Part shown: positions 6,846-34,293 of the stretch, piece after piece
Layout: each line of letters starts with the position of its first letter
Position numbering within the stretch: position 1 is the first letter of the stretch
IMG/VR virus record: IMGVR_UViG_3300032272_000009
Location: 1-64,000 of that record
Length of the DNA stretch: 64,000 nucleotides
DNA from: a virus
Taxonomy: Duplodnaviria; Caudoviricetes
Strand: one strand, 5' to 3'
The notes under the pieces: generated by a model
The model's input: the letters and a program-made list of their open reading frames with translations, nothing else
What the model was told of the DNA's origin: nothing
Databases searched by the model: none
Position numbers and translations under genes: made by a program

Positions 6846-7036
6846 TTATGATAAATATTTGACTAGCTCTTCTCTAAAACGCTCCACTATCTCTGTGGCG
6901 GTTATTTCATTATTTTTGATAGCATCTTCAATAACGCCACATGGTAAATCTTCATCATCTTTCCGACCATAATAAAGAAAGATTGAAACTAAATCGCCAG
7001 CATTATCTAAAATTAATTTTTTTTGTTATCACTCAT
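6846..7036 (-). pseudogene. conserved phage small protein interrupted by a frameshift in an A8 run
   Basis: GGAG RBS then ATG AGT GAT AAC AAA AAA AAT TAA; the -1 frame continues LILDNAGDLVSIFLYYGRKDDEDLPCGVIEDAI to the stop at 6846. Confidence 0.5.
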
Positions 7037-7782: not shown

Positions 7783-8328
7783 TTATCCCGGTTTTATCCT
7801 ATCATCATACTTTTCTTTGTGGGTGCGGAACAACTCAGACAAGAACATGGAATTGCACATTATGTGATCTACGTGAGGAAGACCACTATATCCTTCACTA
7901 GCTTCACCGTTTTCATCCAAGTCTAGGTCTTGACCATTTTGAAACGCCATCAAATGCCTTAACATAGAATCTACGATATTACTATAAGGAAAACCTTGTT
8001 TCCAGTTTCCTCGATGATACTTCTCAGCACCAAATTCAAGAACTCTTACCATGCCTTTCATAGCGTTTGGTGCTTCTAATAGATATGATAATTCAGGTTT
8101 TCCTGCGTTATGTCTGGTTGCGTCATTGCATTCATGATTAATGATTATTGCACCCTTTACATGAAAATATGGTGGTTTTACATTTGTAATAGCTAGATCA
8201 CCGTCCTCTAATTTTGATGTGCCGTCCCAATTATCAAATATAGTTGTACATTTAAACTCTTTAATTAATGATTCTGCACGTCTAGTTTTACCTATTCCTG
8301 CTTCGCCATACAATATTATAATACTCAC
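7783..8328 (-). CDS. dATP/dGTP diphosphohydrolase domain (DUF5664) fused to a small P-loop module
   Basis: N-terminal GEAGIGKT; C-terminal [41 protein letters not shown]. Confidence 0.75.
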
Positions 8329-11097: not shown

Positions 11098-11137
11098 TGC
11101 TATTTGTCCTCGTTTCAATTTATTGCTTATGAAGCTA

Positions 11138-11167
11138 ATAATAGCATTATAAAACATCTTTTGTCAA
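11138..11167 (-). promoter_or_regulatory. sigma70-type promoter of the left arm
   Basis: TTGACA-18 nt-TATTAT on the minus strand. Confidence 0.55.
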
Positions 11168-11243
11168 CATATCATTTTACTCCTTATATATAGGGCTGTA
11201 TCAGGCACAGATATTTGATGTTATGGTTGCGTGTTTTTGGTTG

Positions 11244-11271
11244 TTGCATCGGGTCATCTATCCTGTATAAT
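11244..11271 (+). promoter_or_regulatory. sigma70-type promoter of the right arm
   Basis: TTGCAT-16 nt-TATAAT, divergent from the left-arm promoter. Confidence 0.55.
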
Positions 11272-11319
11272 CAACACCATGATTTAAGAAAAACTTTCTA
11301 TAATCCAAGAGGCAAAAAA

Positions 11320-11604
11320 ATGAGAATCAATTATAAAGGCCATGCAATAGATACAAAAGTTGTAACCGGCCAACTGACAAAAGCAAGCATAAAAAGTTTA
11401 GATGTGTTCTTCTCATATGATGAACCTATTGCTATTTGTTATCCTCAAAAAGCTATAATTAATGCTGAACCTGCATGTTCGTCAACAACTTCTCGACATA
11501 TAAACCATGTTAAGAAACTATACACTGAAAGAGAAGAGTTTCTGTATATCGATTTTCACATCAAGATGGAACAACTACTGAATGGTGAATGGGGCGAATC
11601 ATGA
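11320..11604 (+). CDS. hypothetical protein (start MRINYK)
   Basis: GAGG RBS before ATG 11320; FFSY...STTSRHIN pattern. Confidence 0.6.
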   Translation: MRINYKGHAIDTKVVTGQLTKASIKSLDVFFSYDEPIAICYPQKAIINAEPACSSTTSRHINHVKKLYTEREEFLYIDFHIKMEQLLNGEWGES

Positions 11605-12110
11605 TATACAAAATAGGCCAAAATGTAGTATTCGAAGATATGGTTAAGGGTTCATTCAGAATATCAGAAATTATATGTACAGTATGTGAACCAGAAGATC
11701 CGCAGGATGATGAATATGATTTGTGGATATATAACCCTAATCGCGGAGAGAAACATGGCGTCATAAAACACAATATAAGAGTTGTGACAATTGCTGATTA
11801 TGAAAAGGCTTCCCGACTAAAACAATCAATTGGTCGCAGTATTAGACCATTGCAAAAAAATACTGATGTTGAAATAATAGGTTTTACCGATCTTGCAAGA
11901 TTTTCAGAAAAAGAAACTTATCGCAATGCATCAGAAAAATGTGTTGATGATAGCCTAGATAAAATAGACGCAGCTTTGTTTTCTGGAGATGTGTTTATGG
12001 ATAGAAAGAATATTAAAATTATTGAAGAGTACATTGAACGTTGGAGCAGAGAGATAAGTTCTAATAAAATGCTATTAGATCAAATTGATGATGAAGAAAA
12101 CAAATCTTAA
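11601..12110 (+). CDS. hypothetical protein
   Basis: ATGA coupling with the previous stop. Confidence 0.6.
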   Translation: MIYKIGQNVVFEDMVKGSFRISEIICTVCEPEDPQDDEYDLWIYNPNRGEKHGVIKHNIRVVTIADYEKASRLKQSIGRSIRPLQKNTDVEIIGFTDLARFSEKETYRNASEKCVDDSLDKIDAALFSGDVFMDRKNIKIIEEYIERWSREISSNKMLLDQIDDEENKS

Positions 12111-12124
12111 CGAAGGGGTACAAA

Positions 12125-14119
12125 ATGTCAGAATTTAAAGATTTTAGAAACGCTGTAAGCAATAAGATTGATGCCTTGGAAGCATCTGGGTTGCTATACA
12201 CCGATACAGATAAAGATGAACTGTGGGAAGCGTACTTGGAGAGTTTCAAAGAAGGAACAAATCCCATATACAAAGAGCGAACTGAACATGACTGCCAGTG
12301 TTGCAAACAATTCATTCGTGCATGTGGATCAGTTGTTGCAATCGTTGATGGTGAGCTTGTCTCTGTCTGGGATATTGAAGTTGGCGGTATCTATCAGGTC
12401 GTTGCTGATGCGCTGTCAGCACTTGTAAAATCAAATCATATCAATAACAAGTACCTGCATTACGAAGCACAGATCGGTGTTGAGCGCAATCATCAAGTTG
12501 TAAAAGGCGGAAATGTAAAGGCTTGGGATCACTTCAGTCACGTTCTTGGTCAAGCTTATGTAGTCAAAGATGGAACAATTGATTCCAAATTAGGATCTCA
12601 CAAAACCTCTATTCAGACTTTTAATAGGGCATTAGAATCAATCACGCCTGTGTCTGTTGATATTGTTCTTGATCTTATGGATCAAAACTCTCTATATCGT
12701 GGTGAGGAACACAAGGCATCAGTTGAGAGATTTAAAGCTCACCAAGATAAATATAAAGCTCTTGACGACAAACAGAAGGGGTTTTATTTATGGTCAAACA
12801 CAGATATGGGTGTTGCCGGAATTCGCAACTCTGTTATTGGCTCACTACTGGTTGACCTGTCAGAAGGGAAAGAAATTGATCAAGCTGTGAATAGTTTTGA
12901 AGACAAGGTATCGGCTGGAAAATACAAACGCACAATGGCTGTTGCGACTAAAGGTATGATTGACAAGGCAGAAGCAAAATTTAACAAGCTTGGTTTGCAT
13001 GATTCTATTGATCGCAGATATGCTTATATGGATGATTTGACAATCAATAACGTAATCTTTGCCAACAGAGCAACAAAAAAATCATTTAACGTATTTGACG
13101 AAATGAAAAACGAAGTGTCAGTTGATGTGTCGAAATTTGATAAAGTAGAAGAGATTGGTATCGATGTATTTATTCGAGATGTGCTTCCAAAAGCAGATGC
13201 AATTGAAATGATGTTTGCAAACAATCATATAAATAACTTGGTAAGCCTGATTGCACCAGAAGTTGCAAGTGCGCCTAACATTTTAAAATGGGATAATAAT
13301 TTCTCGTGGTCTTACAATGGTGAAGTTGCAGACTCTATCAAAGAGCGAGTAAAGAATGCTGGTGGCAATGTTGATGCATATATGCGTGTTTCATTATCTT
13401 GGTATAACACTGATGATTTAGATATTCATGTTATCGAGCCTAATGGTAATGAGATATTTTATGGTAGCAAAATATCTCATGACACTGGTGGCAGATTAGA
13501 TGTTGATATGAACGTTAACAGCTTAAGGCGAGATGCAGTGGAAAACATCATGTGGGCGAATGAAAACAGAATGATTGAAGGTGAATACAAAGTTTTCATT
13601 CGCAATTATACACCTCGTGAAACTGTTGATGTTGGTTTTGAAATTGAAACAGAATGGAATGGCAAGATCAAAAACTTTGCTCATCCTAAGAGAGTTACCA
13701 AGGATGTATCTGTATTGACGTTCACTTACTCAAAGGCTGGTGGCGTCAGTATCAGAAGCGAAATGAAAGAATCAAATATCGTTAAAGAGGCATGGGGGAT
13801 CAATACTCAAGGTTTCCATAACGTCTCAATGGTAATGAATTCACCTAATCATTGGGATGGCGAATCAACGGGAAACAAACACTGGTTCTTTATGCTTGAT
13901 AAATGTAACAATGAGAAACCATCAAGAGGGTTTTATAATGAATTCTTGAGAAATGAGTTTAATGAACACCGTAAAGTGTTTGAATTATTAGGCTCGAAAA
14001 TGAAAACAAAGGTTTCTGATAATCAACTTAGTGGACTGGGTTTTTCTTCAACAAAGAGAGATTCGGTTCTTTGTAGGGTGAGTGGTAGTTTTAACCGTGT
14101 AGTAAAAATCAACTTTTAA
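12125..14119 (+). CDS. large conserved phage protein with a YfaP/DUF2135-like domain
   Basis: 664 aa; N-terminal HDCQCC; RVSLSWYNTDDLDIHVIEPNG...GGRLDVDMN...VENIMW. Confidence 0.75.
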   Translation: MSEFKDFRNAVSNKIDALEASGLLYTDTDKDELWEAYLESFKEGTNPIYKERTEHDCQCCKQFIRACGSVVAIVDGELVSVWDIEVGGIYQVVADALSALVKSNHINNKYLHYEAQIGVERNHQVVKGGNVKAWDHFSHVLGQAYVVKDGTIDSKLGSHKTSIQTFNRALESITPVSVDIVLDLMDQNSLYRGEEHKASVERFKAHQDKYKALDDKQKGFYLWSNTDMGVAGIRNSVIGSLLVDLSEGKEIDQAVNSFEDKVSAGKYKRTMAVATKGMIDKAEAKFNKLGLHDSIDRRYAYMDDLTINNVIFANRATKKSFNVFDEMKNEVSVDVSKFDKVEEIGIDVFIRDVLPKADAIEMMFANNHINNLVSLIAPEVASAPNILKWDNNFSWSYNGEVADSIKERVKNAGGNVDAYMRVSLSWYNTDDLDIHVIEPNGNEIFYGSKISHDTGGRLDVDMNVNSLRRDAVENIMWANENRMIEGEYKVFIRNYTPRETVDVGFEIETEWNGKIKNFAHPKRVTKDVSVLTFTYSKAGGVSIRSEMKESNIVKEAWGINTQGFHNVSMVMNSPNHWDGESTGNKHWFFMLDKCNNEKPSRGFYNEFLRNEFNEHRKVFELLGSKMKTKVSDNQLSGLGFSSTKRDSVLCRVSGSFNRVVKINF

Positions 14120-15895: not shown

Positions 15896-16210
15896 ATGAG
15901 TCCAAACAAAAACAATCTAGTTGATCATAAAACTGTAGTCGATTTTAAATCTATTGGTGATCTAAACCAAAATCTTCGTGCACCAAATGAGTATAAACTT
16001 GTGACTGATGGGGAATCACTGTACCGAATTCATCCAAACTTTCCAATACCAAAAGGTCTAAAAGAAGTTTTTACTCATTTTGGTAAAAAAGTGTATCAAA
16101 GCAATGGTAAACTTCATTCGAAGTTTATGGCACTACAAAGAGTGCAACCTAGTTATAATGTAAACAAAGTGACAGTTGCGGTTCGAGAAGCATTGAGTGA
16201 AATAGATTAA
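15896..16210 (+). CDS. hypothetical protein
   Basis: ORF track; coupled. Confidence 0.6.
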   Translation: MSPNKNNLVDHKTVVDFKSIGDLNQNLRAPNEYKLVTDGESLYRIHPNFPIPKGLKEVFTHFGKKVYQSNGKLHSKFMALQRVQPSYNVNKVTVAVREALSEID

Positions 16211-16650
16211 TGAGTATCAAGCAAATAGTTACTGATGTTGATAAATTGGCTATGGTGTCTCTTCCTGTTGATGACCACAGGGAAGCTTTAACCATCATTG
16301 ATGATATAATGCACACTGCCCATGATTGCTCTCAGAAGCCTTTAGGTTGCCTCGGTTTAGCATGTAATCAGATAGGTATTTTAAAAAGAATCATAGTTGT
16401 AGATATTGCTGGTGAGTTTGTCCCGATGATAAACCCAGTGATAGATTATATCCATACTGCCGCAGGAAAAATGAATGGCAAAGAAAGTTGTTTGTCAAGG
16501 CCAAAAATAACTGTAAAGATAAAAAGATATAAAAAAATTACAGTTTCGTATACTGACATTTCAGGGGCAAGAATCACAACAAAATTCTCAAAGATGACAG
16601 CTAGAGTTATACAGCATGAAATAAACCATCTGGACGGAAAATACATATAG
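16210..16650 (+). CDS. def: peptide deformylase, C-terminally truncated phage type
   Basis: CLGLACNQIG, ESCLS and QHEINHLDG motifs. Confidence 0.92.
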   Translation: MSIKQIVTDVDKLAMVSLPVDDHREALTIIDDIMHTAHDCSQKPLGCLGLACNQIGILKRIIVVDIAGEFVPMINPVIDYIHTAAGKMNGKESCLSRPKITVKIKRYKKITVSYTDISGARITTKFSKMTARVIQHEINHLDGKYI

Positions 16651-21641: not shown

Positions 21642-21670
21642 TTGACAACGGATACCATAACTGGTATAAT
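21642..21670 (+). promoter_or_regulatory. perfect-consensus sigma70 promoter
   Basis: TTGACA-17 nt-TATAAT directly upstream of AGGAG and the Sak4-type gene. Confidence 0.9.
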
Positions 21671-21694: not shown

Positions 21695-22489
21695 ATGGCA
21701 ATTAAATTAACAACAACGGGTCAAAGCTCAAGATTTGTAAAAGCATTATGTTATGGCGATGCTGGTGTTGGTAAGACAGTTTTGTGTTCTACTGCACCAA
21801 ATCCAATAATCATATCAGCAGAAAGTGGTTTGCTTTCACTGTCACATCTGAACATTCCTGTTATTGAGGTTAGCACACTTGCTGACGTTCAGGAAGCATA
21901 TCAATTTATCACTGAGTCAGATGATGCGAAACAGTTTCAAACTGTATGTCTTGATTCTATTACTGAAATCGCAGAAGTAATGCTAAGTCAGTACAAGAAA
22001 GAAGATAAAGACCCTCGCAAATCTTATGGTGCATTGGCAGATCACATGTCACAGCTTGTACGTACTTTTAGAGACTTACCAGAAAAACATGTTTATTTTT
22101 CCGCCAAGATGGCCAGGATTGAAGACGAGTACTCAGGTGTTTCTACATTCCGTCCAGCTATGCCGGGTAAGACTCTGGTTAATGGTCTTCCATTTTTCTT
22201 TGATGAGGTTATGGCATTGCGTATTGGTACTGAAGAAGATGGAACAATGTTTCGCTATCTTCAGACTGAGCCTAGTGTTCAGTATACAGCAAAAGATCGC
22301 TCAGGTAAACTTGATAAAATTGAACGCCCAGACTTAACACACATGTTTGATAAGGTGCTTGGTGCAGAAAAACCTCGTTTATCTGAAAATGTCATGCAGA
22401 ACAAGAAGGCTGGTGCCGCCACTGATAAACAAGAAGCTGAACAAGATGAGGCAAAAGCTGCTGAATCTGGTGACGTGACTGATGGTTGA
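21695..22489 (+). CDS. Sak4-like AAA ATPase (single-strand annealing)
   Basis: YGDAGVGKT, CLDSITE and AKDRSGKL. Confidence 0.85.
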   Translation: MAIKLTTTGQSSRFVKALCYGDAGVGKTVLCSTAPNPIIISAESGLLSLSHLNIPVIEVSTLADVQEAYQFITESDDAKQFQTVCLDSITEIAEVMLSQYKKEDKDPRKSYGALADHMSQLVRTFRDLPEKHVYFSAKMARIEDEYSGVSTFRPAMPGKTLVNGLPFFFDEVMALRIGTEEDGTMFRYLQTEPSVQYTAKDRSGKLDKIERPDLTHMFDKVLGAEKPRLSENVMQNKKAGAATDKQEAEQDEAKAAESGDVTDG

Positions 22490-22720
22490 AATAAATGAAG
22501 GCGACATTCTTGAGTTGATAGATACTATCGGTTGGCTTTCTGATGAGTGTGATCGCATACAGAAATACCTTCCAACCGGTCAGGATTCTGAAGCAAGCAG
22601 GGCAATTGCTGTCGGCAAAGAGTTGGTAGAAAAATATTCAAAATAGTATATGGGAGCTATTCAAAATCCCTAAATTAATGAATAGTAGCGTAGCTACATA
22701 AAATGAAAAGGAAGTAAAAA

Positions 22721-23227
22721 ATGGCTAAGTTAAATTTTAATGGTGCTGGTCAGGAAGCAATGGATGATTTTTCTGTTGTTCCTGCTGATACGTACAATGT
22801 TCAGATTGTAAAATCAGAAGTTGTTGAAACCAAGGCAAAAACTGGCACTTTGCTGAAAACGCAATTCAAAGTGATTGATGGAAAATTCAAAGGTCGTATC
22901 ATCTTTGGTCAGTATAATCTGACCAATCCAAATGTGCAGGCAGTTGAAATTTCTCGCAAGCAAATGAAGACACTTTGTGACGCAATTGGCAAACCCGATG
23001 GCGTACAAGATTCTAATGAAATGCACAATATCCCACTGCAAATCAAAGTATCTGTAAAGCCTGCTGATGGCCAATATGCTGAACAGAACGAAATTAAGTT
23101 CTACAGCAAGTATGAAGGGCCAAAAGTTGAAGGTTCTGGTTCTGGCGGATCTTCTACTGATTCTGCTGCCGCAGCAAATACTGCTGCTAGTGCTGAACCA
23201 AAAACAGCTCCTTGGGCTAAAGATTAA
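22721..23227 (+). CDS. DUF669-family single-stranded DNA-binding protein
   Basis: VVPADTYNVQIVKSE...FKGRIIF...N; flexible tail ending PW. Confidence 0.85.
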   Translation: MAKLNFNGAGQEAMDDFSVVPADTYNVQIVKSEVVETKAKTGTLLKTQFKVIDGKFKGRIIFGQYNLTNPNVQAVEISRKQMKTLCDAIGKPDGVQDSNEMHNIPLQIKVSVKPADGQYAEQNEIKFYSKYEGPKVEGSGSGGSSTDSAAAANTAASAEPKTAPWAKD

Positions 23228-23249
23228 TTTGTAATTAATCTGTAACAAA

Positions 23250-23274
23250 ATACCCCTTTCGAGGGGTATCTTTT
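23250..23274 (+). terminator. intrinsic terminator
   Basis: ATACCCCT-TTCG-AGGGGTAT-CTTTT. Confidence 0.8.
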
Positions 23275-23286
23275 GAAAGGGATAAC

Positions 23287-24144
23287 ATGGCTAATTTAGA
23301 AGCGTATTTCAAAGAAAACAAATCAACAATATCTGATTTAATTGATGAAGCTGGAAAGGTAAAATCACTCCCACGTCCATATTTAGGCATGTCACAATTA
23401 GGTGAAGAATGCTGGCGCAAATTGTGGTATTATTTTAGATGGTGTACATACTCAGAATACGATGGTAGAGTACAAAGAATTTTTGATACTGGTCATAGAG
23501 CTGAAGCTGATATGATCAGAGATTTAGAAAGTATCGGTGTGAAGACTTGGGATACACTTGACGCTCAAGCAGGTTTTGTAGCTGTTGGCGGACACTGCCA
23601 AGGTCATGGCGATGGAATGGGAATCGGTATACCTGATGCCCCAAAAACAGAACATTTGTTGGAGTTCAAAACTAGTTCCGATAAGTATTTTAAAGAAGTG
23701 CAAAAGAAAGGCGTAATGGTAAGTAAACCTCTGCATTATGCACAGATGGTTTTGTACATGAAATTCACAAAAGCAACTCGTGGTTTGTACATGGTGTACA
23801 ACAAAAACACTTCTGCATATTATACTGAAAGAGTTCGTGAAGACAAAACTTATGCTAAAGACTTGCTTAGAAAAGCTGAGTCTATTATCACATCAGAAAC
23901 AGTCGAAGCTTTTCAAAAGATTGGTAATGGTACTGAATCATTTTTTATGTGTAGATTCTGTGACTCTTCTGACGTTTGTCATAATGGTGCAAAACCTGTA
24001 AAAACTTGCAGAACTTGCACAAGTGCAAACCTACTTGATGATGGTGTCTGGGGTTGCGGTTTACAAAAAGACAAACCATTAAGCACCGAAGAACAGGCTG
24101 AAGCTTGCCCGAACTATAATTTGCTAGAGTGTTTTAATGGATAG
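23287..24144 (+). CDS. Cas4-like PD-(D/E)XK exonuclease
   Basis: YLGMSQLGEEC, GHGDG, LLEFKT, AQMVLYM and CRFC..C. Confidence 0.85.
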   Translation: MANLEAYFKENKSTISDLIDEAGKVKSLPRPYLGMSQLGEECWRKLWYYFRWCTYSEYDGRVQRIFDTGHRAEADMIRDLESIGVKTWDTLDAQAGFVAVGGHCQGHGDGMGIGIPDAPKTEHLLEFKTSSDKYFKEVQKKGVMVSKPLHYAQMVLYMKFTKATRGLYMVYNKNTSAYYTERVREDKTYAKDLLRKAESIITSETVEAFQKIGNGTESFFMCRFCDSSDVCHNGAKPVKTCRTCTSANLLDDGVWGCGLQKDKPLSTEEQAEACPNYNLLECFNG

Positions 24145-25783
24145 TTTCAGTCTTGTTGAAGACAATTCTATTGAAGGCGAATTTATACCAGCTGGTTTTG
24201 AAGAACGCTGGTATCAAGAAGAAGCAACAGTCGCCACATTAGAAGCAATAAAAGACAAAAACCGCCACCCTATTGTAGCTGTTCCTACTGGTGGCGGTAA
24301 AACACACATCATAGGCAAGTTGATAAACAGGTACTTGCATCAAAACCCAACCCGTGACGTCATTGTTCTTAGTCACGTTAAAGAAATTCTTGTTCAAGAT
24401 TATGCAGCGATAAAAAAATATACTAACGCTCCAATAGGTATATATTCTGCTATGCTTAATTCTAAAACTGTAGCAAGAATAACTGTCGCTGGTATACAAT
24501 CAGTATACAAAAGGGCTTCTGAATTTGGTGATGTTGGATTGATCATAGTTGATGAATGTCACTTGGTAACAGACGACAATCAGGGGATGTACAGAACTTT
24601 CCTTGCTGAGTTTAATGCAAACATAGTTGGTTTAACTGCTACACCATTCAGGCCTCGTGGATATTTACATCTCGTAAAAGATGCATTGTTTACTGATATA
24701 TGTTACGATCTAACTTCTTCTGCTAATTTCAGAAGACTTATTGCCGAAGGTTATCTGTCTAAACTGTATTCAAAAGCTACGTACATGAAAATGGATGTTG
24801 ATGACATACCTAATCAAGCTGGTGACTTCAACAATAAGATAATGGCAAAGAAGTTCAACACTGAAGAAGTTACAGAAATAGCGCTAGAAGAAACAATCAA
24901 AATAGGTACTAACTACAAAAAGTGGTTGATTTTTGCTATATCTATTGAACACGCTGAGTCCATCAGAGACTATTTGAATGACGCTGGGTATAACACTGGC
25001 ATAGTTCATTCAAAAATGGAAAGGGATGGTGAAGACAGGGACGAAATGCTTGCTAGGTTTAAGACTCCATTTTATCGAGCTATGGTTAATGTCAATGTTC
25101 TCACAACCGGTCTTGACATACCAGAAATAGACTTGATAGTTATGTTAAGGCCAACTCAAAGCCCTGTGATATATGCTCAATCTGTAGGTAGAGGTCTGAG
25201 AGTGGTTAAAGGCAAGGATCATTGCTTAGTGTTAGACTTTGCTGGGAATGTTGCTAGGCATGGCCCTGTAGATGACATACAGATAAGACAGAAGGGCGAG
25301 AAAAAGTCAGGTGATCCGGTAACTAAACAATGTCCTTCGTGTATGGCTATATGTCATCCTATAATGCAAATCTGTGAAGCTTGCGGTCATAAATTTGAAT
25401 TCAAGGTTAAAATAGCTGACAAACCAACTGAACTTGATATATTAAAAACAACAAAGAAAAGCTGGTTAAACGTCAGTCTTATGACGATAAACAAACACAA
25501 GAAACCAAAAAGTCCCGACTCAATAAGGATTGATTATGTTTGCGGTCTCAGAAAATTTAGTCAATGGGCTGCAATACAATCTAACTCTAGGCAAGCTGTA
25601 CATTTCGCAAAGTATATACTAAACAAATTCTGCGACTTTCCAGAAGATTTTGAATATACAGTAGATAACATTCTTGAATATAGAGACAAGTTCAAGAAAC
25701 CAAAAAGAATATACGTAGATCAAACTGAGAATTACCCACAAATAGAAGAAATTGATTTTGGAGATAATAATGAAGAAGCCTGA
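24137..25783 (+). CDS. SF2 DExH helicase (RadD/YejH-like) with Zn ribbon
   Basis: PTGGGKT, DECH, TAT, QSVGRGLR and CPSC..CEAC. Confidence 0.92.
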   Translation: MDSFSLVEDNSIEGEFIPAGFEERWYQEEATVATLEAIKDKNRHPIVAVPTGGGKTHIIGKLINRYLHQNPTRDVIVLSHVKEILVQDYAAIKKYTNAPIGIYSAMLNSKTVARITVAGIQSVYKRASEFGDVGLIIVDECHLVTDDNQGMYRTFLAEFNANIVGLTATPFRPRGYLHLVKDALFTDICYDLTSSANFRRLIAEGYLSKLYSKATYMKMDVDDIPNQAGDFNNKIMAKKFNTEEVTEIALEETIKIGTNYKKWLIFAISIEHAESIRDYLNDAGYNTGIVHSKMERDGEDRDEMLARFKTPFYRAMVNVNVLTTGLDIPEIDLIVMLRPTQSPVIYAQSVGRGLRVVKGKDHCLVLDFAGNVARHGPVDDIQIRQKGEKKSGDPVTKQCPSCMAICHPIMQICEACGHKFEFKVKIADKPTELDILKTTKKSWLNVSLMTINKHKKPKSPDSIRIDYVCGLRKFSQWAAIQSNSRQAVHFAKYILNKFCDFPEDFEYTVDNILEYRDKFKKPKRIYVDQTENYPQIEEIDFGDNNEEA

Positions 25784-26300
25784 AATAATAGTAAACGCTT
25801 ATGAAATGAAAACAATACAAGATTTGTTTAAGATCGGTATGTCGCGTGAAGTTCCTATGCTTTTAAGTAAAGATCATGGCACTCACATAAATGTAGGCGC
25901 TGGAACTTATAAAACTTTACACGGTGCTGAACCTATCGATTACCCTGAGTGGGACGCTAGAAAAGATCGATTACCATATGAAGACGAATCAGTTGACGTC
26001 ATCCATTGTTATCACTTTCTTGAGCATATGGCCGACCCTGTATTAATACTTCAAGATTTTGAAAGAGTTTTGAAAGTTGGTGGCTACACAAACATTGTCG
26101 CACCTTACTACAATTCACATTTGCAGGCGAAATGTTTAGACCACAAATCAATGTTCAATGAGTCAACGTGGGATAATCTGTTCAACCAGTATTCATATGA
26201 CAATTTTTCTGGTGAATGGAAGTTAAAAGTTCACACAACTTTTATTATGGGCGTAGAAGAAAAGAACATGGCGTTACTAACCCAATTGGTGAAGGTATAA
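25752..26300 (+). CDS. class I SAM-dependent methyltransferase (small-molecule type)
   Basis: NVGAG, LPYEDESVD, HFLEH and RVLKVGG. Confidence 0.8.
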   Translation: MILEIIMKKPEIIVNAYEMKTIQDLFKIGMSREVPMLLSKDHGTHINVGAGTYKTLHGAEPIDYPEWDARKDRLPYEDESVDVIHCYHFLEHMADPVLILQDFERVLKVGGYTNIVAPYYNSHLQAKCLDHKSMFNESTWDNLFNQYSYDNFSGEWKLKVHTTFIMGVEEKNMALLTQLVKV

Positions 26301-27199
26301 TGAAAATTTTTGGAGCGGGTCTATCAGGTTTGATTGCAGGCGTTGCAAACCCTAGAGCAAAGATTTATGAAAAAGGTGATTATGGAACACAAGGTCATCA
26401 AGCACTATTGAGGTTTAGAACTAATGCCGTAAGTGATATGACTGGCATTAAGTTTAAGAAAGTAAAAGTAATCAAGGCTATTTGGAGTAATGGTGCAGAA
26501 CGACAACCTTCGCCTAGATTGGTAGCTCTGTACTCACATAAGAACACTGGTCATTTCGAAAACAGATCAATTATGGATATCAAAACTGTTGAGCGGTTTA
26601 TTGCTCCAGATAATTTTCATCAGTTATTGGTTGATGAGTGCGAAGATAGAATAACTTATGAACATGCTGTAGACAAAGATGATTTTAAGTCTGATGAGAA
26701 CATAATAAGCACTTTGCCATTGTCGTTCAATGCAAAAATGTTAGGTTATGATTTTCCTACTGAGAAAAACATGAGTAAAATTTATGTCACTAGGGTAATT
26801 GTAGATAATTGTGATATGTATACAACTGTGTACTATCCTGATGATGACATATCAGTATATCGTGCATCTATTACTGGAAAAACATTGATAATCGAATCTA
26901 AAGATGAAATTGACAATGAATATTTAGGCATTGTGTTGAAATCTATGGGTTTAGATTCTTCTATCATAGAAATCGAGATGGGCAACCATATACAGCCTAT
27001 GGGTAAATTGTCAGACGTTAATGACAGTGAGCGCAGGGTAATGATTTACAAAATGAGTCATGATCATGGTGTATTTAGTCTTGGTAGATTTGCACTACAC
27101 AAGAATATTTTGCTTGATGATGTTGCACACGATATTAGAGTAGTAAAAGCCATGATGGCTGATGATTCTTACGGAGTTTCAACAAGGGGTAGAACATGA
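26300..27199 (+). CDS. FAD/NAD-dependent oxidoreductase
   Basis: MKIFGAGLSGLIAG...IYEK Rossmann motif; C-terminal LGRFA; TAATG coupling. Confidence 0.75.
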   Translation: MKIFGAGLSGLIAGVANPRAKIYEKGDYGTQGHQALLRFRTNAVSDMTGIKFKKVKVIKAIWSNGAERQPSPRLVALYSHKNTGHFENRSIMDIKTVERFIAPDNFHQLLVDECEDRITYEHAVDKDDFKSDENIISTLPLSFNAKMLGYDFPTEKNMSKIYVTRVIVDNCDMYTTVYYPDDDISVYRASITGKTLIIESKDEIDNEYLGIVLKSMGLDSSIIEIEMGNHIQPMGKLSDVNDSERRVMIYKMSHDHGVFSLGRFALHKNILLDDVAHDIRVVKAMMADDSYGVSTRGRT

Positions 27200-27633
27200 A
27201 GTTAGTAGTTGTCGATCTTGAAAACACTATATCAGATTCAAGACATAGAATGTGGTTACTTGGTTATGGTGTGGATGACGCATCAAAAAAAGAACACTAC
27301 GATAAGTTTCAAGAAGAGTTTAAATACGATAAACTGAACATGAATGTAAAAATGTTCATTGACTCGTTGGTAAGAAAAGGGTATACTATTGTAATCCTAA
27401 CAGCCAAGCTTGAGAAATACAGGGTTATGGTTACGAATTGGCTTGTAGAAAATGATGTATTGTTTTCTTCGCTGGTTATGAAGAAAAAAGAAAACATTAG
27501 TGATTTAAAATTTAAAGAAAATTATATAATTGTAAATCAAAAATTAATCACATTTGCACTTGATGACGTAGGCAGTAATTGCGCTCTATTTGGCAAATAT
27601 AATATTCCATGTTTAAGGATCGAACAGAAATGA
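27196..27633 (+). CDS. HAD-family phosphatase (PNK-phosphatase-like)
   Basis: VVVDLENT..D..HR, LTAK and ALDD motifs. Confidence 0.7.
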   Translation: MKLVVVDLENTISDSRHRMWLLGYGVDDASKKEHYDKFQEEFKYDKLNMNVKMFIDSLVRKGYTIVILTAKLEKYRVMVTNWLVENDVLFSSLVMKKKENISDLKFKENYIIVNQKLITFALDDVGSNCALFGKYNIPCLRIEQK

Positions 27634-28184
27634 GTGACATGACAATAATAGTGACGGATACTGAAACTACCGGGTTGGTAAAGCCTATCCCTACTGATAT
27701 TCAGTTTCAACCTTTCATGACAGAAATTTATGCATGTAAGCTGGATCAGAATTTTAAATTCTTGGGAGAGTTTGGGTCTCTGGTTAGACCACCAATTCCT
27801 ATCTCTGCGGAAATAACTAAGATAACTGGTATAGATGATGCTAAGTTAATTGGCGCTCCAACTTTTGCTGAAATATATGATCCATTGTATGATTTCTTTC
27901 AAGGCGCTGATATGGTTGTTGGTCAAAACATAATGTTTGATATTAATGTTATCAATTATGAGTTGATGCGTCATGATTGGGATAAAAAGTTTTGTTATCC
28001 AAAGAGGCACGTTTGCACTATTGAGTCTTCATATCACTACCAAAACAAAAGATTAAATCTTGCAAAATTGCATGAGCTTTTGTTTGGCGAAGGGTTTGAG
28101 GATGCTCATAGAGCAAAATCTGATGTTATGGCTACCGTTAGATGTTTCATTGAGCTTGTCAAGCGTGGAGATATTGTACTATAA
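27630..28184 (+). CDS. dnaQ: DEDDh 3'-5' exonuclease (epsilon-like)
   Basis: DTETTG, GQNIMFD and AHRAKSD. Confidence 0.88.
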   Translation: MSDMTIIVTDTETTGLVKPIPTDIQFQPFMTEIYACKLDQNFKFLGEFGSLVRPPIPISAEITKITGIDDAKLIGAPTFAEIYDPLYDFFQGADMVVGQNIMFDINVINYELMRHDWDKKFCYPKRHVCTIESSYHYQNKRLNLAKLHELLFGEGFEDAHRAKSDVMATVRCFIELVKRGDIVL

Positions 28185-30991
28185 TGTACCACTTAACCCT
28201 AAAATCGGAATATTCTTTCAAACAGACTTTTAGTTTTCTGCAAGAGTTGCATGATAACTACTCACATAATAACGTCATTGGTATTGCAGATACAACTACA
28301 CTTGGTTTTTATAAACTGTATGAGATGTGTAAAAAATCTGGAAAGAAAGCAATATACGGTTTTAGGGTTTCCGTTGTTCAAGATGCAACTGAAAAGGTTA
28401 AACCTAGAGGTCAGTTTGGTAAAGAATACATAATCATAGCGAAGAATTATCATGGATTACAAGAAATTTTTATGCTGTCTAAGATTCAATCTGAAAACTT
28501 TTACTATCGTGGGAACGTTAGTTGTAGTGATATTGATAGTCTTAGTCAAAATGTCTTTGTTGTTTCAACAGACCCCGTTGCTAACAGGCTTGATTTTATT
28601 GGTGTTAATTATACTACGAGGCCAAAAGTCTTAGCATATGATTACCCAAAATTATATGTCGATAATAATTACTACACAACAAATGAAATGAAAAAGATTT
28701 ATGAGTTGATGCTTGGCGGTTCAGCAGATAACAAAACATTTCCACAGCACATCTTATACCAAGATGAGATTCGTGGTTTTGGACTTGAATGTATTGAAAA
28801 TTTACAAGCTGTCGTTGACCAGTGTGAGGATATTGAGTTTAAGAAAGCTGCAAATATTAGATACAAAGGCAAAGGCAACATTGTAGATTTATGTAAAGAA
28901 GGTGCAACAAGAAAAAACATAGATTTGTCTGATCCAGTTTACAAGGCACGTTTTGAAAGGGAGATTAATCTTTTAGCAGATAAAGATTATGGTGATTATC
29001 TGCTTGTTGTTGCCGACTTGATAAAGAGTGCTAAGAAATTCTGTTTGGTTGGTGGTGGTCGTGGTTCAAGTGCTGGATCACTAGTATGTTATTTGCTTGA
29101 TATTACAGAGGTCGATCCACTTGTTCATGGTTTGATCTTTGAGAGATTTGTTGATATAAACAGATACGATCCACCAGATGTTGACACAGATTTTCCAGAC
29201 AACGCAAGAAAAAAGGTTGTCAAATACCTAGAAAAACTTTATGGGGTAGACAACGTAAAAACAATATCTACCATCTCAAAATACAAACCAAAAATAACTA
29301 TTGGTGAGTTTGCAAAACATATGGAAATCCCAAAGTTTGAAACTGAGGCCGTAAAAGATATAATCATTGAGAGGGCTGGTGGGGATGCTCGGGCATCATT
29401 TTGTTTAGAAGATACTCTAATGGGAACAGATGTTGGCAAAGAGTTTCTCGAAAAACACCCTAACATGATTAACGTCAAATATGCAGAAGGACACAGCAAA
29501 CAGAAAGGCAAACACGCAGCTGGGGTAATTGTATGTAATGACCCAATAGTTGAGTATTGTGGTATTGATTCAAGAGATGAAACCGCAATGCTTGACAAGA
29601 AAGATGCGGAAAAACTGAACCTGTTAAAAATTGATGTTCTAGGTCTTAGAACTTTGTCAGTGTTACAAGATTGTGCCAAAGCAATAAAAATGGATTACAG
29701 AGATTATTATAAGTTACCACTCGATGATGAGAATGCTTATAAGGTATTCCAAGAAAAAAGATTGGGTGGTATATTCCAGTTTGAAGGCGAAGCAATGAAG
29801 TCTATAAATGACTCGGCCCCAATGGAGAAGTTTGAAGATATAGTTGCTGCTGGTGCTTTGGGTAGACCGGGAGCATTATCATCTGGTGGGACATCAAGGT
29901 ACGTCCAGTTAAGGAATGGTACTAGAGAGCCTTTGTACTATTGTCCTGAACATAAGAAACTGACAGAAGAAACTTATGGTATCGTCATATATCAAGAGCA
30001 AATGATGTGGTTGTGTAAAAATATTGCTGGCATGTCTTGGGAGGATGTGTCAGATTTAAGAAAGGCCGCATCAAAATCGCTAGGTGAAGAGTTTTTTGAT
30101 AAGTATAGAATCAAGTTTGTTGAAGGCGCATGTTCACTTTCTGGATACGATGAAGAGACAGCAAATAAAGCTTGGCTGGATATAAGCTCGATGGGTTCTT
30201 ATGCCTTCAACAAGTCTCACAGTGTTGTTTATGGGCAGATAAGCTACTGGACAGCATATATGAAGGCCAATTACCCATTGGAGTTTATTGCGTCAATTCT
30301 AAACAATGCTAAGGATGATGATAGCTCATTAAAAATATTGCGTGAATTCTATGAGTCTGAAGATTTAGTATTTAAAGCCGTTGATCCTTGGAAATCAAAG
30401 ACTGCATGGGAGATTATAGACGGAACTTTGCTTGGCGGCATAACAAATATAAAAGGAATTGGCGCAGCAAAAGCACTAGATATAATAAAAATGAGAGAAG
30501 GCAAGAAACCATTTACACCAGCTATGAAAAGACATATGGAGAATCCAAAAACCCCATTTGATGTACTTTACCCAGCTCAACATCATTGGGGCGAGCTGTA
30601 TAGAGACCCGCAGAAATTCGGTTTGAACAAAGTTGACTATATAAAAGATGTTGAATCGCCTAGGGATTATGCTATAATAGGCAAAATGATACATGTGGAT
30701 GATGTCAATGTTAATGATGTTCAATCAATAGCAAAAAGAGGTGGTGAGGTATTAGACGGCCCAAACATGAAAGTTCATGTAAGGCTAGAAGATGACACTG
30801 GCGTTATGATGTGTATAGTGAATAGATTTGTATATGAAAAACTATCACAAGATTTCCTTAGAGAAAAGGTTGGTGAAACCTGGTTCTGTTTGATAGGTAA
30901 AGTTATGCCTGGCGCTAAGATATTGTTCGTTAAAGAAGTGGCAAATCTGAATAGAGATATTGGTCTTAATGAATCCGAGGAACAAAGATAG
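28184..30991 (+). CDS. dnaE: DNA polymerase III alpha subunit
   Basis: GRGSSAGSL, PPDVDTDF, KIDVLGL and YAFNKSHS; PHP, HhH and OB domains. Confidence 0.95.
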   Translation: MYHLTLKSEYSFKQTFSFLQELHDNYSHNNVIGIADTTTLGFYKLYEMCKKSGKKAIYGFRVSVVQDATEKVKPRGQFGKEYIIIAKNYHGLQEIFMLSKIQSENFYYRGNVSCSDIDSLSQNVFVVSTDPVANRLDFIGVNYTTRPKVLAYDYPKLYVDNNYYTTNEMKKIYELMLGGSADNKTFPQHILYQDEIRGFGLECIENLQAVVDQCEDIEFKKAANIRYKGKGNIVDLCKEGATRKNIDLSDPVYKARFEREINLLADKDYGDYLLVVADLIKSAKKFCLVGGGRGSSAGSLVCYLLDITEVDPLVHGLIFERFVDINRYDPPDVDTDFPDNARKKVVKYLEKLYGVDNVKTISTISKYKPKITIGEFAKHMEIPKFETEAVKDIIIERAGGDARASFCLEDTLMGTDVGKEFLEKHPNMINVKYAEGHSKQKGKHAAGVIVCNDPIVEYCGIDSRDETAMLDKKDAEKLNLLKIDVLGLRTLSVLQDCAKAIKMDYRDYYKLPLDDENAYKVFQEKRLGGIFQFEGEAMKSINDSAPMEKFEDIVAAGALGRPGALSSGGTSRYVQLRNGTREPLYYCPEHKKLTEETYGIVIYQEQMMWLCKNIAGMSWEDVSDLRKAASKSLGEEFFDKYRIKFVEGACSLSGYDEETANKAWLDISSMGSYAFNKSHSVVYGQISYWTAYMKANYPLEFIASILNNAKDDDSSLKILREFYESEDLVFKAVDPWKSKTAWEIIDGTLLGGITNIKGIGAAKALDIIKMREGKKPFTPAMKRHMENPKTPFDVLYPAQHHWGELYRDPQKFGLNKVDYIKDVESPRDYAIIGKMIHVDDVNVNDVQSIAKRGGEVLDGPNMKVHVRLEDDTGVMMCIVNRFVYEKLSQDFLREKVGETWFCLIGKVMPGAKILFVKEVANLNRDIGLNESEEQR

Positions 30992-31416
30992 TGAATTTCA
31001 TAGTATTTAGTGGCATCTCAGAATCATTTAACAAGGCTATAATAAGTGCTTGTTTAGAAAAAACAAACTATAGAGATTATTTTGTAAATAGAGACCCGAG
31101 CAACTGTATGGCTCTAAATTTTATACAAGATAAAATCGATACTATTGAGCAAATGGACGAATATATTGGTTTTTTAAATTATTTCAAAGAAGGTGTAGAT
31201 TTAGCTGTATTGATAACATGTGATAATGAAGCATTAGAAAAAAGATTCGCAGATTATAACAAAATTTTTACCAGTAATGAATCATTTTTAGAACGACAAG
31301 AGGTGATAAAACAGTATTTTGATAAAGCGAAATATCAAAACTGTATAGAAATAAATGCTACGGACAAAACTGTAGATCAATGTGTCAAGTTAATAATAAA
31401 CAAACTAGAGGAATAA
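30991..31416 (+). CDS. nucleotide-kinase-like protein with degenerate P-loop
   Basis: Beta1 FIVFSG and DLAVLITCDNEALEKRF resemble the dTMP kinase fold; no GK(S/T). Confidence 0.45.
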   Translation: MNFIVFSGISESFNKAIISACLEKTNYRDYFVNRDPSNCMALNFIQDKIDTIEQMDEYIGFLNYFKEGVDLAVLITCDNEALEKRFADYNKIFTSNESFLERQEVIKQYFDKAKYQNCIEINATDKTVDQCVKLIINKLEE

Positions 31417-31422
31417 TAAGTT

Positions 31423-32325
31423 ATGCCAGTCAATAATGAATTAGAAGAGCGCCCACTTTTGGTAAATCTGAAGATAGGTGAAAAACCTAAAACACGGTTC
31501 TTGCATGGTCTTGATGCAGTAAATGTTCGAATGATTGATTGCCCTACCACAGAAGACTTGATGAAGTATATCCCAGAATTTGCGTCTGGTACTTGGGAAG
31601 ACAAATCAAAAACAGATTTTACTGATGCTGAGCGTGCTCAAGTAGTAGATGATCTGTTTGCAGGTTATATCCTGCCTACAGCTCTTGAAACCATCAAGAT
31701 GACATTTATCATCGAAGGTATTGATTTGGTTGATGTATGCCATCTTATCCGCCATAGAACTTTGTCATTCTCTGCTCAAGGTACTGGTGACCGTGACATG
31801 CGAAATGATGATATTTTGGTCAAGCCTTCAATTCTTGGTAATAAAAAGTATGCTGACAGATTTGAGAAACTGATGCTTGACGCAAAAGACCTGTATGCTG
31901 ATGTAACAGATGATCCAGATATGCCTATTCTTGATGCTCGCACATTCATGCCACGCTGTACATCAAACTACTACTATGTGTCTGGCGATCTTAAAGCAAT
32001 CATGGCTTTTGTTGGTCAGCGCAAGGATGAGTCTATTGAGCCAGAAACAATGAACATCTTTGCTCTCAAATTGTGGATTGAAGTTGTTAAGCGTTTTCCA
32101 CAACTAAAAGGAAAAATTGACCTGTTATCACCAGATCATTTTGCAATTGAAACGTCTATAGGTGGTAGAAGTAGCAATTTCTACAAACCTGAACCAAAGA
32201 ACGATATTTATGAGTATCGTCTTGACTGGTTCATGAGAGACAAAATGCGCCAAGAAATGACTGGTGGGCAAGATTACATCATCATGCGTGACAAACTGAT
32301 TGATCAATTTAATGAAATAGTTTAA
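31423..32325 (+). CDS. ThyX-fold flavoprotein with diverged active site
   Basis: HLIRHRTLSFSAQGTGDR and LDARTFMP versus canonical QLVRHRxxSxxxxSxRY. Confidence 0.8.
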   Translation: MPVNNELEERPLLVNLKIGEKPKTRFLHGLDAVNVRMIDCPTTEDLMKYIPEFASGTWEDKSKTDFTDAERAQVVDDLFAGYILPTALETIKMTFIIEGIDLVDVCHLIRHRTLSFSAQGTGDRDMRNDDILVKPSILGNKKYADRFEKLMLDAKDLYADVTDDPDMPILDARTFMPRCTSNYYYVSGDLKAIMAFVGQRKDESIEPETMNIFALKLWIEVVKRFPQLKGKIDLLSPDHFAIETSIGGRSSNFYKPEPKNDIYEYRLDWFMRDKMRQEMTGGQDYIIMRDKLIDQFNEIV

Positions 32326-32331
32326 GAGGTA

Positions 32332-32625
32332 GTGATGGCTAAGAAAAAGATAATTCTGGTTGAGGGCGACAAACATTTTGGTTTGATTGAAAACTATATC
32401 AATGCAGATGAAAATGATCTACCAACGCCAGAGCATGTCTTACAAGATGAGTTTAACAGGATGATGGATAAAATAAAATCATTGGTTAATGTAAGCTCAA
32501 TAATCGAAAATAAAGAAGTGAAGCTTGTATTGGAAGAAAAGATTGCGGCATATAAGGATGCTTCTCAATCTTTGCTTTATGTAGTTGAGAAAATAAATCA
32601 ATTCAAAATGGAGATAAAACAGTGA
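32332..32625 (+). CDS. hypothetical protein
   Basis: GAGG RBS; coupled. Confidence 0.55.
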   Translation: MMAKKKIILVEGDKHFGLIENYINADENDLPTPEHVLQDEFNRMMDKIKSLVNVSSIIENKEVKLVLEEKIAAYKDASQSLLYVVEKINQFKMEIKQ

Positions 32626-33200
32626 GCAATATTCAACACCCTGAAATGGTAAAAGGTTTGGCAAAAAGTGGCGCACAGATAATCAATGATTTTACGCCAG
32701 ATACAGCCCATATACTGCACATGGCAATTGGGATAGCTGGAGAATCTGGTGAGTTAGCTTCTGTCATTCACTCGAAATTTGAGTTTGAGGCAATTGACAA
32801 AAAGAACGTCGTGGAAGAGCTTGGTGATCTTGAGTTTTATCTTGAGGGGTTTCGACAGGGGTTAGGCATTAGTCGCTTGGAAACAATTGTGGATGATACA
32901 TCATATGACATGGATCGTGGGATTATGTCAAGTGCAAAAAATGGTGCCATGTTCTTAAATATTGCGTCATCAATCTTGCTTGACCAGATAAAGAAAGTTG
33001 CATTCTATGTCAAGCCAGTAAATACTGACAACGTGGTAAAATCTCTTATCAAGATTGAAGGTCATATGTATATCTTGAGAAAGTGTTTTTATATTACGTA
33101 TGAGCAGACTCTCGAACACAACATAGCCAAGCTTGGTGATCGCTATCAAGGCCATCAATATTCTGATGAACAGGCAATAGCTAGAGCTGATAAAAACTAG
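32622..33200 (+). CDS. MazG-like NTP pyrophosphohydrolase with internal duplication
   Basis: GIAGESGEL...EELGDLEFY; second half LLDQIKK...HNIAKLGDRY. Confidence 0.8.
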   Translation: MSNIQHPEMVKGLAKSGAQIINDFTPDTAHILHMAIGIAGESGELASVIHSKFEFEAIDKKNVVEELGDLEFYLEGFRQGLGISRLETIVDDTSYDMDRGIMSSAKNGAMFLNIASSILLDQIKKVAFYVKPVNTDNVVKSLIKIEGHMYILRKCFYITYEQTLEHNIAKLGDRYQGHQYSDEQAIARADKN

Positions 33201-33445
33201 TGCAACAAACCAGAGTTGAATCTGCAATAGAAAGAGCTTGTGATATTATCACAGGCTTTTTTCTTTCGTGGTGTTTGTATGAATTTTATATAAGAAACCA
33301 TCCTGAGTTTTCAAGTTTGTATATAGTATCTTGTTTTACCGCAGTATCATTGATAAGAGGCTATTACTGGCGCAGATTCTTCAATAGAGGTTTGCATAAA
33401 ATTGTACATAAATACGCAAACAAAATCTTTAAGAGGTTAAAATGA
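33200..33445 (+). CDS. small membrane protein (DUF7220-like)
   Basis: QTRVESAIE...[17 protein letters not shown]. Confidence 0.65.
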
Positions 33446-34293
33446 AAGAATATTTGAAGTTATGTAACAGAGTGATCAACGAAGGTCACTGGGTTACTAA
33501 CAAAAGAACTGGTAAGCGTTGTCTTACTGTTATAAATGCAGACTTAGAGTATTATGTAGGCGATGGTACTCTTCCAGTTTTGACTACTAAAAAACTGTTC
33601 TGGAAACCTGCAATTGCAGAGATGCTTGGATACTTGCGAGGTTATACAAGTGCTGCTCAGTTCAGAAGGCTTGGATGTAATACATGGAATGCAAATGCTA
33701 ATGAAAATTCTGCTTGGCTTGCAAACAGGTTTAGAACTGGTGTAGATGACATGGGCAGATGTTACGGTGCTCAAGGTAGAGACTGGAGAAACCCAGAAAA
33801 TGAATCTATCGACCAGTTAAGAAATATTTACAATGACCTTCGAAATGGGATTGATAATAGAAGTGAGATTCTTACTTTTATGAATCCCGGAGAGAGAGAC
33901 AGGGCTTGTTTAAATTCCTGTATGCACACACACACCTTTAGTTTGCTGGATGGTGGCTTGTATTTGACATCATACCAGAGGTCTGATGACCTGCCACTAG
34001 GACATGGCTTTAATCAGGTGCAGGTGGCTTGGTTGTTGATGATAATGGCACAGATAACAGGCTTAAGAGCTGAGACAGCCTATCATAAAATAGTCAATGC
34101 TCATATTTATGAAGACCAGTTGCAACAGTTGCAGGATGTTCAATTGGTGCGGGAGCCTCTAAACCTTCCAACTTTGCGAATAAATCCTGAGATTAAAACA
34201 CTGGAAGACTTAGAGACTTGGGTTACTCTGGATGATTTTGAACTTTTAGATTATGAACATCATCCTGCGATAAAATATGAATTTAGTGTTTAG
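33442..34293 (+). CDS. thyA: thymidylate synthase
   Basis: SCMHTH (catalytic Cys), [13 protein letters not shown] (dUMP-specifying Asn) and NAHIY. Confidence 0.93.

Follow-up and report, generated by a model that had tools for sequence, protein, structure and literature searches.

In the pre-replicative pyrimidine-replacement systems of phages T4, SPO1, RB69 and DLP3, a ThyA-fold enzyme, either a hydroxymethylase of deoxycytidine or deoxyuridine monophosphate (dCMP, dUMP) or a 5-hydroxy-dCMP synthase, works together with a deoxynucleoside monophosphate (dNMP) kinase, a deoxynucleoside triphosphatase (dNTPase) and the phage's own polymerase. That a synthase homologue can change both its cofactor and its chemistry has precedent (PMC13326640). 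According to a 2025 preprint, the DNA of the Pbunavirus phages F8 and 14-1, previously thought unmodified, holds a sugar-type hypermodified thymidine: derivatives of 362 u and 390 u replace about one-quarter of T, the DNA resists enzymes with TG in their recognition site, and no biosynthetic genes were assigned to the modification (PMC12191111). Wifcevirus phages, for their part, are reported to be insensitive to restriction-modification systems, although no mechanism that would protect them is known (BASEL; PMC11990801). Here we describe an operon of the virus record IMGVR_UViG_3300032272_000009 (Duplodnaviria; Caudoviricetes; G000 below) in which a non-canonical relative of the flavin-dependent thymidylate synthase ThyX is encoded together with a phage DnaE polymerase, and compare it with these systems.

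The window, meaning the whole stretch of DNA analysed, is the first 64 kb of this 72,682-bp IMG/VR record, which CheckV rates as complete. Positions 25770-34293 form the distal two-thirds of a single plus-strand operon (21695-34293), and this operon is a single replication and nucleotide-metabolism unit that joins parts of two recurrent, uncharacterised phage gene sets around variants of the ThyX fold. The original prediction had listed nine functions in one coupled operon; all nine are present, but three needed correcting: the 'flavin oxidoreductase' has a fold of the UDP-galactopyranose mutase/protoporphyrinogen oxidase (UGM/PPO) type without a Pfam match, the HAD phosphatase is NT5C-like, and the kinase-like open reading frame (ORF) has no Walker A motif in this phage. 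The genes of the distal part are:

25770-26300, plus strand: small class I S-adenosylmethionine (SAM) methyltransferase of small-molecule type (Methyltransf_11, 40 bits; phrog_6636, 3e-48); 25770 is the likely true start
26300-27199, plus strand: UGM/PPO-fold flavoprotein-like protein of 299 residues, with a GAGLSG Rossmann motif at the true start, 26300 (phrog_4828, 'unknown')
27196-27633, plus strand: HAD phosphatase, NT5C-like (weak Pfam match of the PNKP-phosphatase type; motif I = DLENT)
27609-28184, plus strand: DnaQ-type 3'-5' exonuclease (RNase_T, 7e-17)
28184-30991, plus strand: DnaE-type DNA polymerase III alpha of 935 residues (PF07733, 2e-59)
30991-31416, plus strand: orf141, small thymidylate-kinase/deoxynucleoside-kinase (dNK)-like protein (Atlas neighbours thymidylate-kinase/dNK-like)
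31423-32325, plus strand: non-canonical ThyX-fold flavoenzyme of the 'TGDRD' clade (Pfam Thy1, 55.9 bits against a cut-off of 24.8)
32332-32625, plus strand: orf97, a 97-residue ORF with no family match in Pfam, PHROG or NCBIfam scans, 44% identical to its counterpart in the closest relative, L004
32622-33200, plus strand: predicted MazG-like all-alpha NTP pyrophosphatase (phrog_229, 3.6e-27; weak Pfam MazG match; E-x-x-E motifs present)
33200-33445, plus strand: small hydrophobic DUF7220 protein (Pfam)
33442-34293, plus strand: canonical thymidylate synthase ThyA (NF002498 equivalog, 468 bits against a cut-off of 427, residues 1-283)

All genes of the operon lie on the plus strand; between 24137 and 34293 they overlap or are separated by at most 7 bases, and over the full 21695-34293 they overlap or lie a few bases apart, with every reading frame intact and translationally coupled. 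Like the T4- and SPO1-type systems, the window has a paralogue from a synthase superfamily, a dNMP-kinase-like gene, an NTP pyrophosphatase, a nucleotidase and its own polymerase. It differs from them in that the paralogue has the ThyX and not the ThyA fold, no glycosyltransferase occurs among the ORFs scanned, and the Walker A motif of the dNMP-kinase-like gene is degenerate, so that an active dedicated kinase of the T4/SPO1 type is probably lacking.

The ThyX-fold protein resembles both ThyX (EC 2.1.1.148; Thermotoga maritima TM0449, Mycobacterium tuberculosis ThyX) and PolB, the UMP/dUMP C5-methylase of polyoxin synthesis: all of its top Foldseek hits are ThyX or PolB, its best profile hit is PDB 4p5a (PolB; E 6.7e-7), and it retains the RHR motif and the arginines equivalent to R78, R80, R147 and R174. 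In contrast to both, it carries G-T-G-D-R-D-x-R ([C/G]-T-G-D-R-D-x-R across the clade) in place of the Ser88-x-Arg90-Tyr91 loop, which in ThyX follows the pattern RHR-x7-S-x-R-Y, with Gly, Gly and Asp at the Ser, Arg and Tyr positions; it also has Thr for His53, is extended by about 60 residues at the N-terminus and about 70 at the C-terminus, and scores only 41.5 bits against the TIGR02170 equivalog cut-off of 87.9. The string T-G-D-R-D-x-R is invariant in 28 diverse homologues, in which the Ser88 position is mostly Cys, and Gly in the clade of the window. A quick tree separates the TGDRD clade from canonical ThyX (SH-aLRT 100), but joins it only weakly, and in a manner prone to long-branch artefact, to a second non-canonical type, the RTR clade described below.

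At least 197 TGDRD ThyX genes are present in IMG/VR. In 20 viral genomes with the paralogue, nine also encode a canonical ThyX and three a ThyA, so that coexistence with a canonical synthase is seen in 12 of the 20; it is the sole Thy-type gene in four complete genomes of 41-45 kb. G000 has one Thy1 match genome-wide, namely the TGDRD gene. In L004, a canonical ThyX occupies the slot held in the window by the DUF7220 gene and thyA while the paralogue is kept, and the canonical synthase has therefore been exchanged while the paralogue was retained. Because synonymous divergence (dS) from L004 is saturated, which makes dN/dS unreliable, we used nonsynonymous divergence (dN) only. The paralogue has a dN of 0.113, second lowest in the operon after DnaE, and together with the methyltransferase and the flavoprotein (dN 0.11-0.19) is constrained by purifying selection; dN is raised in orf141, the HAD gene, the MazG-like gene and orf97. 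Judged from its sequence, then, the paralogue is a constrained, non-redundant enzyme and no spare thymidylate synthase. A separate ThyX-fold enzyme beside ThyA had been proposed, and the motif, tree, coexistence and dN evidence agree in making it a conserved non-canonical paralogue.

A ThyX-type gene is probably concealed by annotation in another phage. In Pseudomonas phage E2005-C (L003; OQ831729.1; locus 11084-13615), E2005C_084, annotated as a 'hypothetical protein' of 843 residues, lies on the opposite strand to a 329-residue frame that matches the ThyX profile, and is probably a mis-annotation.

The idea that ThyA covers the supply of deoxythymidine monophosphate (dTMP) was borne out, as the gene encodes a host-derived dTMP synthase. 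The catalytic Cys (SCMH) and the dUMP-specifying Asn (GFNQ) are seen in its translation, and it is 75-81% identical to the cellular ThyA of Desulfopila, Desulforhopalus, Desulfofustis and Desulfosarcina. Given this high identity, thyA appears to be a recent acquisition from a Desulfobulbales-like host. One sediment metagenome contains the stretch and is a possible source (no RNA sequencing run is listed as containing it); the ThyA identity and the sediment source together suggest that the phage infects sulfate-reducing Desulfobulbales.

Gene linkage was assessed at about 160 viral loci of IMG/VR in all. For the TGDRD gene, ORFs of 80 loci were clustered and neighbours counted out of 79. A PF05014 nucleoside deoxyribosyltransferase (NDT)/Rcl-family gene stands beside it in 70 of these, an HD-type YfbR-like 5'-deoxynucleotidase in 40, a dUTPase_2-NT5C fusion in 22, a canonical ThyX in 18 and a dCMP deaminase in 16, and kinases resembling thymidylate kinase and a DnaE or PolA polymerase are likewise recurrent. 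In L005 and L006, whose paralogues are 74-79% identical to that of the window, the order is helicase, FkbM methyltransferase, NDT, HD, DnaQ, DnaE, kinase and ThyX paralogue. The window and its two nearest relatives have, in the same slot between helicase and DnaQ, the methyltransferase, the flavoprotein and the HAD gene. Read from gene order, this is a three-for-three exchange of FkbM methyltransferase/NDT/HD and methyltransferase/flavoprotein/HAD in one slot. We considered orf141, orf97, the methyltransferase and the flavoprotein as cryptic deoxyribosyltransferases, and rejected them, as none aligns to the NDT cluster.

The flavoprotein belongs to the second gene set. At 79 IMG/VR loci, a Thy1-domain gene of the non-canonical RTR type lies directly downstream of it in 61, and a gene of the same HAD family is near it in 56 (the HAD gene of the window falls in the same BLAST cluster), with DnaQ in 44, a short-chain dehydrogenase/reductase (SDR) in 18 and the methyltransferase in nine. 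The RTR proteins share the motif R-[TSN]-R-x-x-S-[YF]-A-Q-[QE]-x-[MQ]-R-[VT] and miss the equivalents of His79 and Tyr91. The order flavoprotein-ThyX-HAD-DnaQ-DnaE is widespread, and in having flavoprotein and HAD genes between helicase and DnaQ/DnaE the window matches the module of DnaE phages such as Pbunavirus, Wifcevirus and VA-RY-3. Cultured carriers include Pbunavirus 14-1 (gp66, gp60, gp58, gp57 and gp56), Wifcevirus Bas99 and Vibrio phage VA-RY-3, which is syntenic with the window from the AAA_24 gene to DnaE. The window DnaE shares 42-43% identity with its counterparts in VA-RY-3 and Cronobacter phage Ss1 and, over the core, 43% with that of 14-1. With Pbunavirus (F8, 14-1) the window shares the flavoprotein (37% identity over the full length), DnaQ, DnaE, HAD and a non-canonical ThyX in the replication module. 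It differs in that Pbunavirus has an RTR ThyX and a HAD fusion, and the related Wifcevirus module adds an SDR, whereas in the window the ThyX is of the TGDRD type, an SDR is missing and a methyltransferase gene is adjacent. In mycobacteriophage Adjutor the order oxidoreductase-nucleotidase-methyltransferase...DnaE-x-ThyX-like is comparable, and the methyltransferase is 37% identical to ours (E 2e-28). Conservation of the neighbourhood across relatives, one of the checks suggested for this locus, was thus found in the Adjutor order and in the widespread module, but not for the nine genes as one unit.

Alongside ordinary replication genes and a ThyA of host type, the operon carries portions of two conserved ThyX-variant gene sets. 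Its link between a ThyX module, the flavoprotein and Pbunavirus is new here. Literature searches returned no paper assigning a function to TGDRD or RTR ThyX, to the flavoprotein family or to the Pbunavirus modification genes. We infer, and this is our own reading and not a published one, that the flavoprotein-ThyX-HAD module is the modification pathway of Pbunavirus. The masses of 362 u and 390 u fit deoxyuridine (dU) + pentose - O and dU + hexose - H2O, which is what a ThyX-type transfer of a sugar carbon through a flavin iminium would give, while the TG specificity of the modification argues for at least one DNA-level step.

In the same phage 14-1 (L252), gp58 (locus 5940-6956), annotated as a 'polynucleotide kinase/phosphorylase', has an N-terminal HAD domain (FDLDG). 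By eye, its C-terminal segment resembles a small ORF (weak DUF6378 match, E 4e-4, below the Pfam cut-off) that lies directly upstream of the TGDRD ThyX gene in 19 loci; this resemblance may be one more connection between the two kinds of module.

The flavoprotein family has more than 2,000 homologues, nearly all of them phage, viral or metagenomic, and no Pfam or NCBIfam family. The AlphaFold2 (AF2) model of the window protein (mean predicted local distance difference test score, pLDDT, 87.9) aligns in VIA-align with UGM over 285 of 299 residues (Z 19.9; root-mean-square deviation 3.4 A), and with protoporphyrinogen oxidase (Z 18) and monoamine oxidase (Z 16). By this model the protein has the UGM fold, but membership of the UGM sequence family finds no support in Pfam or NCBIfam, and searches of PDB by sequence and by profile came back empty. 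Its GxGxxG and the short motifs I-I-[ST]-T-x-P and G-R-[LF]-A-x-[YH]-K line up with Escherichia coli Glf; it differs from UGM in being 70-200 residues shorter, in having no Pfam match and in fitting protoporphyrinogen oxidase nearly as well. Alignments of the family by hhalign with E. coli Glf (3% probability) and with Adjutor gp60 (13% probability) are collinear, though not significant.

The methyltransferase matches no DNA-methyltransferase family in Pfam, PHROG or NCBIfam, and its nearest solved structures, all weak matches, methylate lipids, sterols or sugars. Methyltransferases with 37-43% identity to it occur in 58 Pbunavirus records, Burkholderia phage WTB and Adjutor-type mycobacteriophages. 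The HAD protein aligns with the NT5C half of the dUTPase_2-NT5C fusions (hhalign 82% probability, E 1e-5). The MazG-like ORF has no PDB sequence match; a relationship to the dUTPase_2 half of the same fusions was considered and dropped, as the alignment is not significant. Elsewhere in the window (7783-8328, minus strand), a 181-residue ORF carries a PF18909 'dATP/dGTP diphosphohydrolase N-terminal' domain (80 bits; phrog_801), without a recognisable MazG catalytic domain.

Upstream, the operon and its surroundings contain the following:

21642-21670, plus strand: putative promoter for the operon (TTGACA-17-TATAAT, extended -10 TG); the sole 12/12 sigma-70-like site in the region, in the gap before the first gene (21695)
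21695-25783, plus strand: replication and recombination genes of the same operon (AAA_24 ATPase, DUF669, Cas4-type exonuclease, SF2 helicase), syntenic with Vibrio phage VA-RY-3

A phage-encoded peptide deformylase (PF01327, 109 bits) lies at 16210-16650 on the plus strand, in the early or replication region. Two NinX-domain paralogues (PF10765) occur in early regions at both record ends (window 3966-4502, minus strand; L171 4447-5007, minus strand), and a VapE-like primase/helicase of 783 residues is encoded at 70321-72672 of G000. Among short palindromes in G000, GCTAGC, GAGCTC and AGTACT are present in one copy each, and CGCG in 24 copies (67 expected). Compared by megablast with 50,697 phage records, the region matched none.

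We consider it plausible that this phage uses these genes to make a non-canonical pyrimidine, although we would put the chances a little below even. The pathway that we infer from the evidence above (what the genes encode, how the proteins fold, the altered motifs, the selective constraint and the linkage) is hypothetical in all its chemical steps, in its substrate and in the delivery of a modified base to virion DNA. ThyA would provide ordinary dTMP. The TGDRD paralogue, by means of its flavin, would place a group other than methyl on C5 of a pyrimidine mononucleotide, most likely dUMP, given that the equivalents of the uracil- and phosphate-binding residues R78, R80, R147 and R174 are kept. 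Provision or tailoring of the transferred group could fall to the UGM-like flavoprotein and the small-molecule methyltransferase, and the trimming of competing or intermediate nucleotides to the MazG-like pyrophosphatase and the NT5C-like HAD protein; the phage DnaE and DnaQ would copy the resulting DNA. Since the dedicated kinase looks inactive, either a host enzyme would have to carry out the phosphorylation or the pathway would be weakened. A bolder form of this proposal, which we think a long shot, is that the flavoprotein and the non-canonical ThyX clades provide a new way of making C5-alkylated or C5-glycosylated pyrimidines, in which a flavin-N5 iminium bearing a sugar-derived carbon, instead of the folate methylene, would act on C5 of dUMP; it would be the pathway to the 362-u and 390-u thymidines of Pbunavirus, with the phage of the window a hybrid that has added a methyltransferase.

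The original prediction of a modification pathway around the phage's own DnaE draws strength from the gene list, the canonical ThyA, the distinct ThyX paralogue and the presence of the module in Pbunavirus with its hypermodified thymidine; it is undercut by a probably dead kinase, a mosaic gene set and the avoidance of restriction sites. These and several further observations weigh against a modified pyrimidine in this phage. CTGCAG, TCTAGA, CCATGG and AGATCT, two of which contain TG, have 0 copies each in G000 (10.7-14.2 expected), and GATC occurs 205 times where 307 are expected (z -7.4); such palindrome avoidance is a signature typical of DNA exposed to type II restriction. In orf141, for which there is no Pfam or PHROG family, the Walker A motif SGIDKSGKTS has become SGISESFNKA (GKT to FNK) and DRDPSN has become NRDPSN in this phage only, the P-loop being intact in six orthologues (L004, L005, L006, L008, L009 and L044); its dN from L004 is 0.31, against 0.08-0.13 for the neighbouring DnaE and ThyX paralogue genes. 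With so degenerate a motif the kinase is probably inactive here, and with it the kinase step originally proposed. The HAD protein has Glu at the second Asp position of motif I of HAD phosphatases, and the HAD, MazG-like and orf97 genes evolve fast.

Gene content points the same way. The nine genes had been taken as one unit, but the whole set is common only to two near-identical close contigs; within 10 kb of the TGDRD gene, the 80 loci have the flavoprotein twice, the methyltransferase four times, the MazG-like gene once and ThyA never. No PF05014 match exists in the whole 72.7-kb genome at E <= 1, and no window ORF aligns to the NDT cluster. The flavoprotein has no RTR ThyX beside it in the window or in L172-L174, and the SDR that accompanies it in Pbunavirus and Wifcevirus is absent from the window. 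No PurZ was found in the genome, and the 39 window ORFs put through Pfam, a set without the structural genes and many small ORFs, include no glycosyltransferase family, in line with what had been noted at first reading; 5-HMUDK and aGPT-Pplase families are also absent from these 39, no search dedicated to either having been made. The TGDRD profile found nothing at E <= 0.01 in the genomes of SP-15 and YerA41, neither of which was used as a relative. The literature searched holds no biochemical or mass-spectrometric data on a TGDRD-clade protein or the flavoprotein family.

Some of this is what would be expected if the operon served ordinary nucleotide supply and pool sanitising and the virion DNA were canonical, a possibility that we take seriously but judge to be on the unlikely side. 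The paralogue would then serve to raise dTMP, as a divergent synthase of thymidylate or related type or as a regulator, and the flavoprotein would be a redox helper of ThyX-type enzymes; the HAD and MazG-like proteins would recycle or clean host-derived nucleotides, like T5 Dmp and MazG proteins. Restriction-site avoidance is strong, no group-transfer enzymes are seen among the Pfam-scanned ORFs, and the genome comes from ordinary metagenomic sequencing and assembly; RHR and the R147 and R174 equivalents are retained, and the paralogue is alone in the four small complete genomes. It is harder to reconcile with the canonical synthase that accompanies the paralogue in 12 of 20 genomes and with the exchange of the ThyX/ThyA slot, through which the paralogue stayed. 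Nor would it explain the loss of the S88, R90, Y91 and H53 equivalents with the gain of a new invariant motif, the near-obligate link to a deoxyribosyltransferase-family gene, or the modified T of Pbunavirus, which has the flavoprotein module (PMC12191111).

The avoidance of restriction sites would also fit a decaying or rewired remnant. In this view the ancestors made a modified pyrimidine, and they gave rise to a lineage that had its NDT/HD pair displaced, lost the function of its kinase and took up ThyA from a host, and whose DNA is now normal, with some of the genes persisting. The confinement of the Walker A loss to this copy, the raised dN of orf141, HAD, MazG-like gene and orf97, and the recent capture of ThyA all agree with such a history, yet we consider it improbable, as the ThyX paralogue, methyltransferase and flavoprotein are clearly constrained at saturated dS and all frames remain intact and translationally coupled. 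It is more doubtful still, in our judgement, that the methyltransferase/flavoprotein/HAD cassette acts on something other than a DNA precursor, such as a sugar nucleotide, a cofactor or a host metabolite, and is merely co-transcribed with the replication genes. The folds nearest to the flavoprotein (sugar-nucleotide mutase, porphyrinogen oxidase, amine oxidase) and the lipid, sterol or sugar substrates of the nearest solved methyltransferases speak for such a target, as does the position of the methyltransferase gene far from the replication genes in Pbunavirus and beside the terminase gene in phage WTB; in 61 of 79 loci, however, the flavoprotein gene adjoins a gene of ThyX type, and across many phage groups it lies between helicase and DnaQ/DnaE.

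If the modification pathway does exist, it would be the first route to pyrimidine modification built on the ThyX fold and a UGM-type flavoprotein and not on ThyA homologues, and it would explain an unannotated phage protein family with more than 2,000 members. The 14-1 genes gp66, gp60 and gp58 would become candidates for the synthesis of the hypermodified thymidine of the Pbunavirus phages, which see wide use in phage therapy, and the same genes could explain the restriction insensitivity of Wifcevirus. The most useful outcome is a hypothesis that can be tested in cultured Pbunavirus and Wifcevirus phages.

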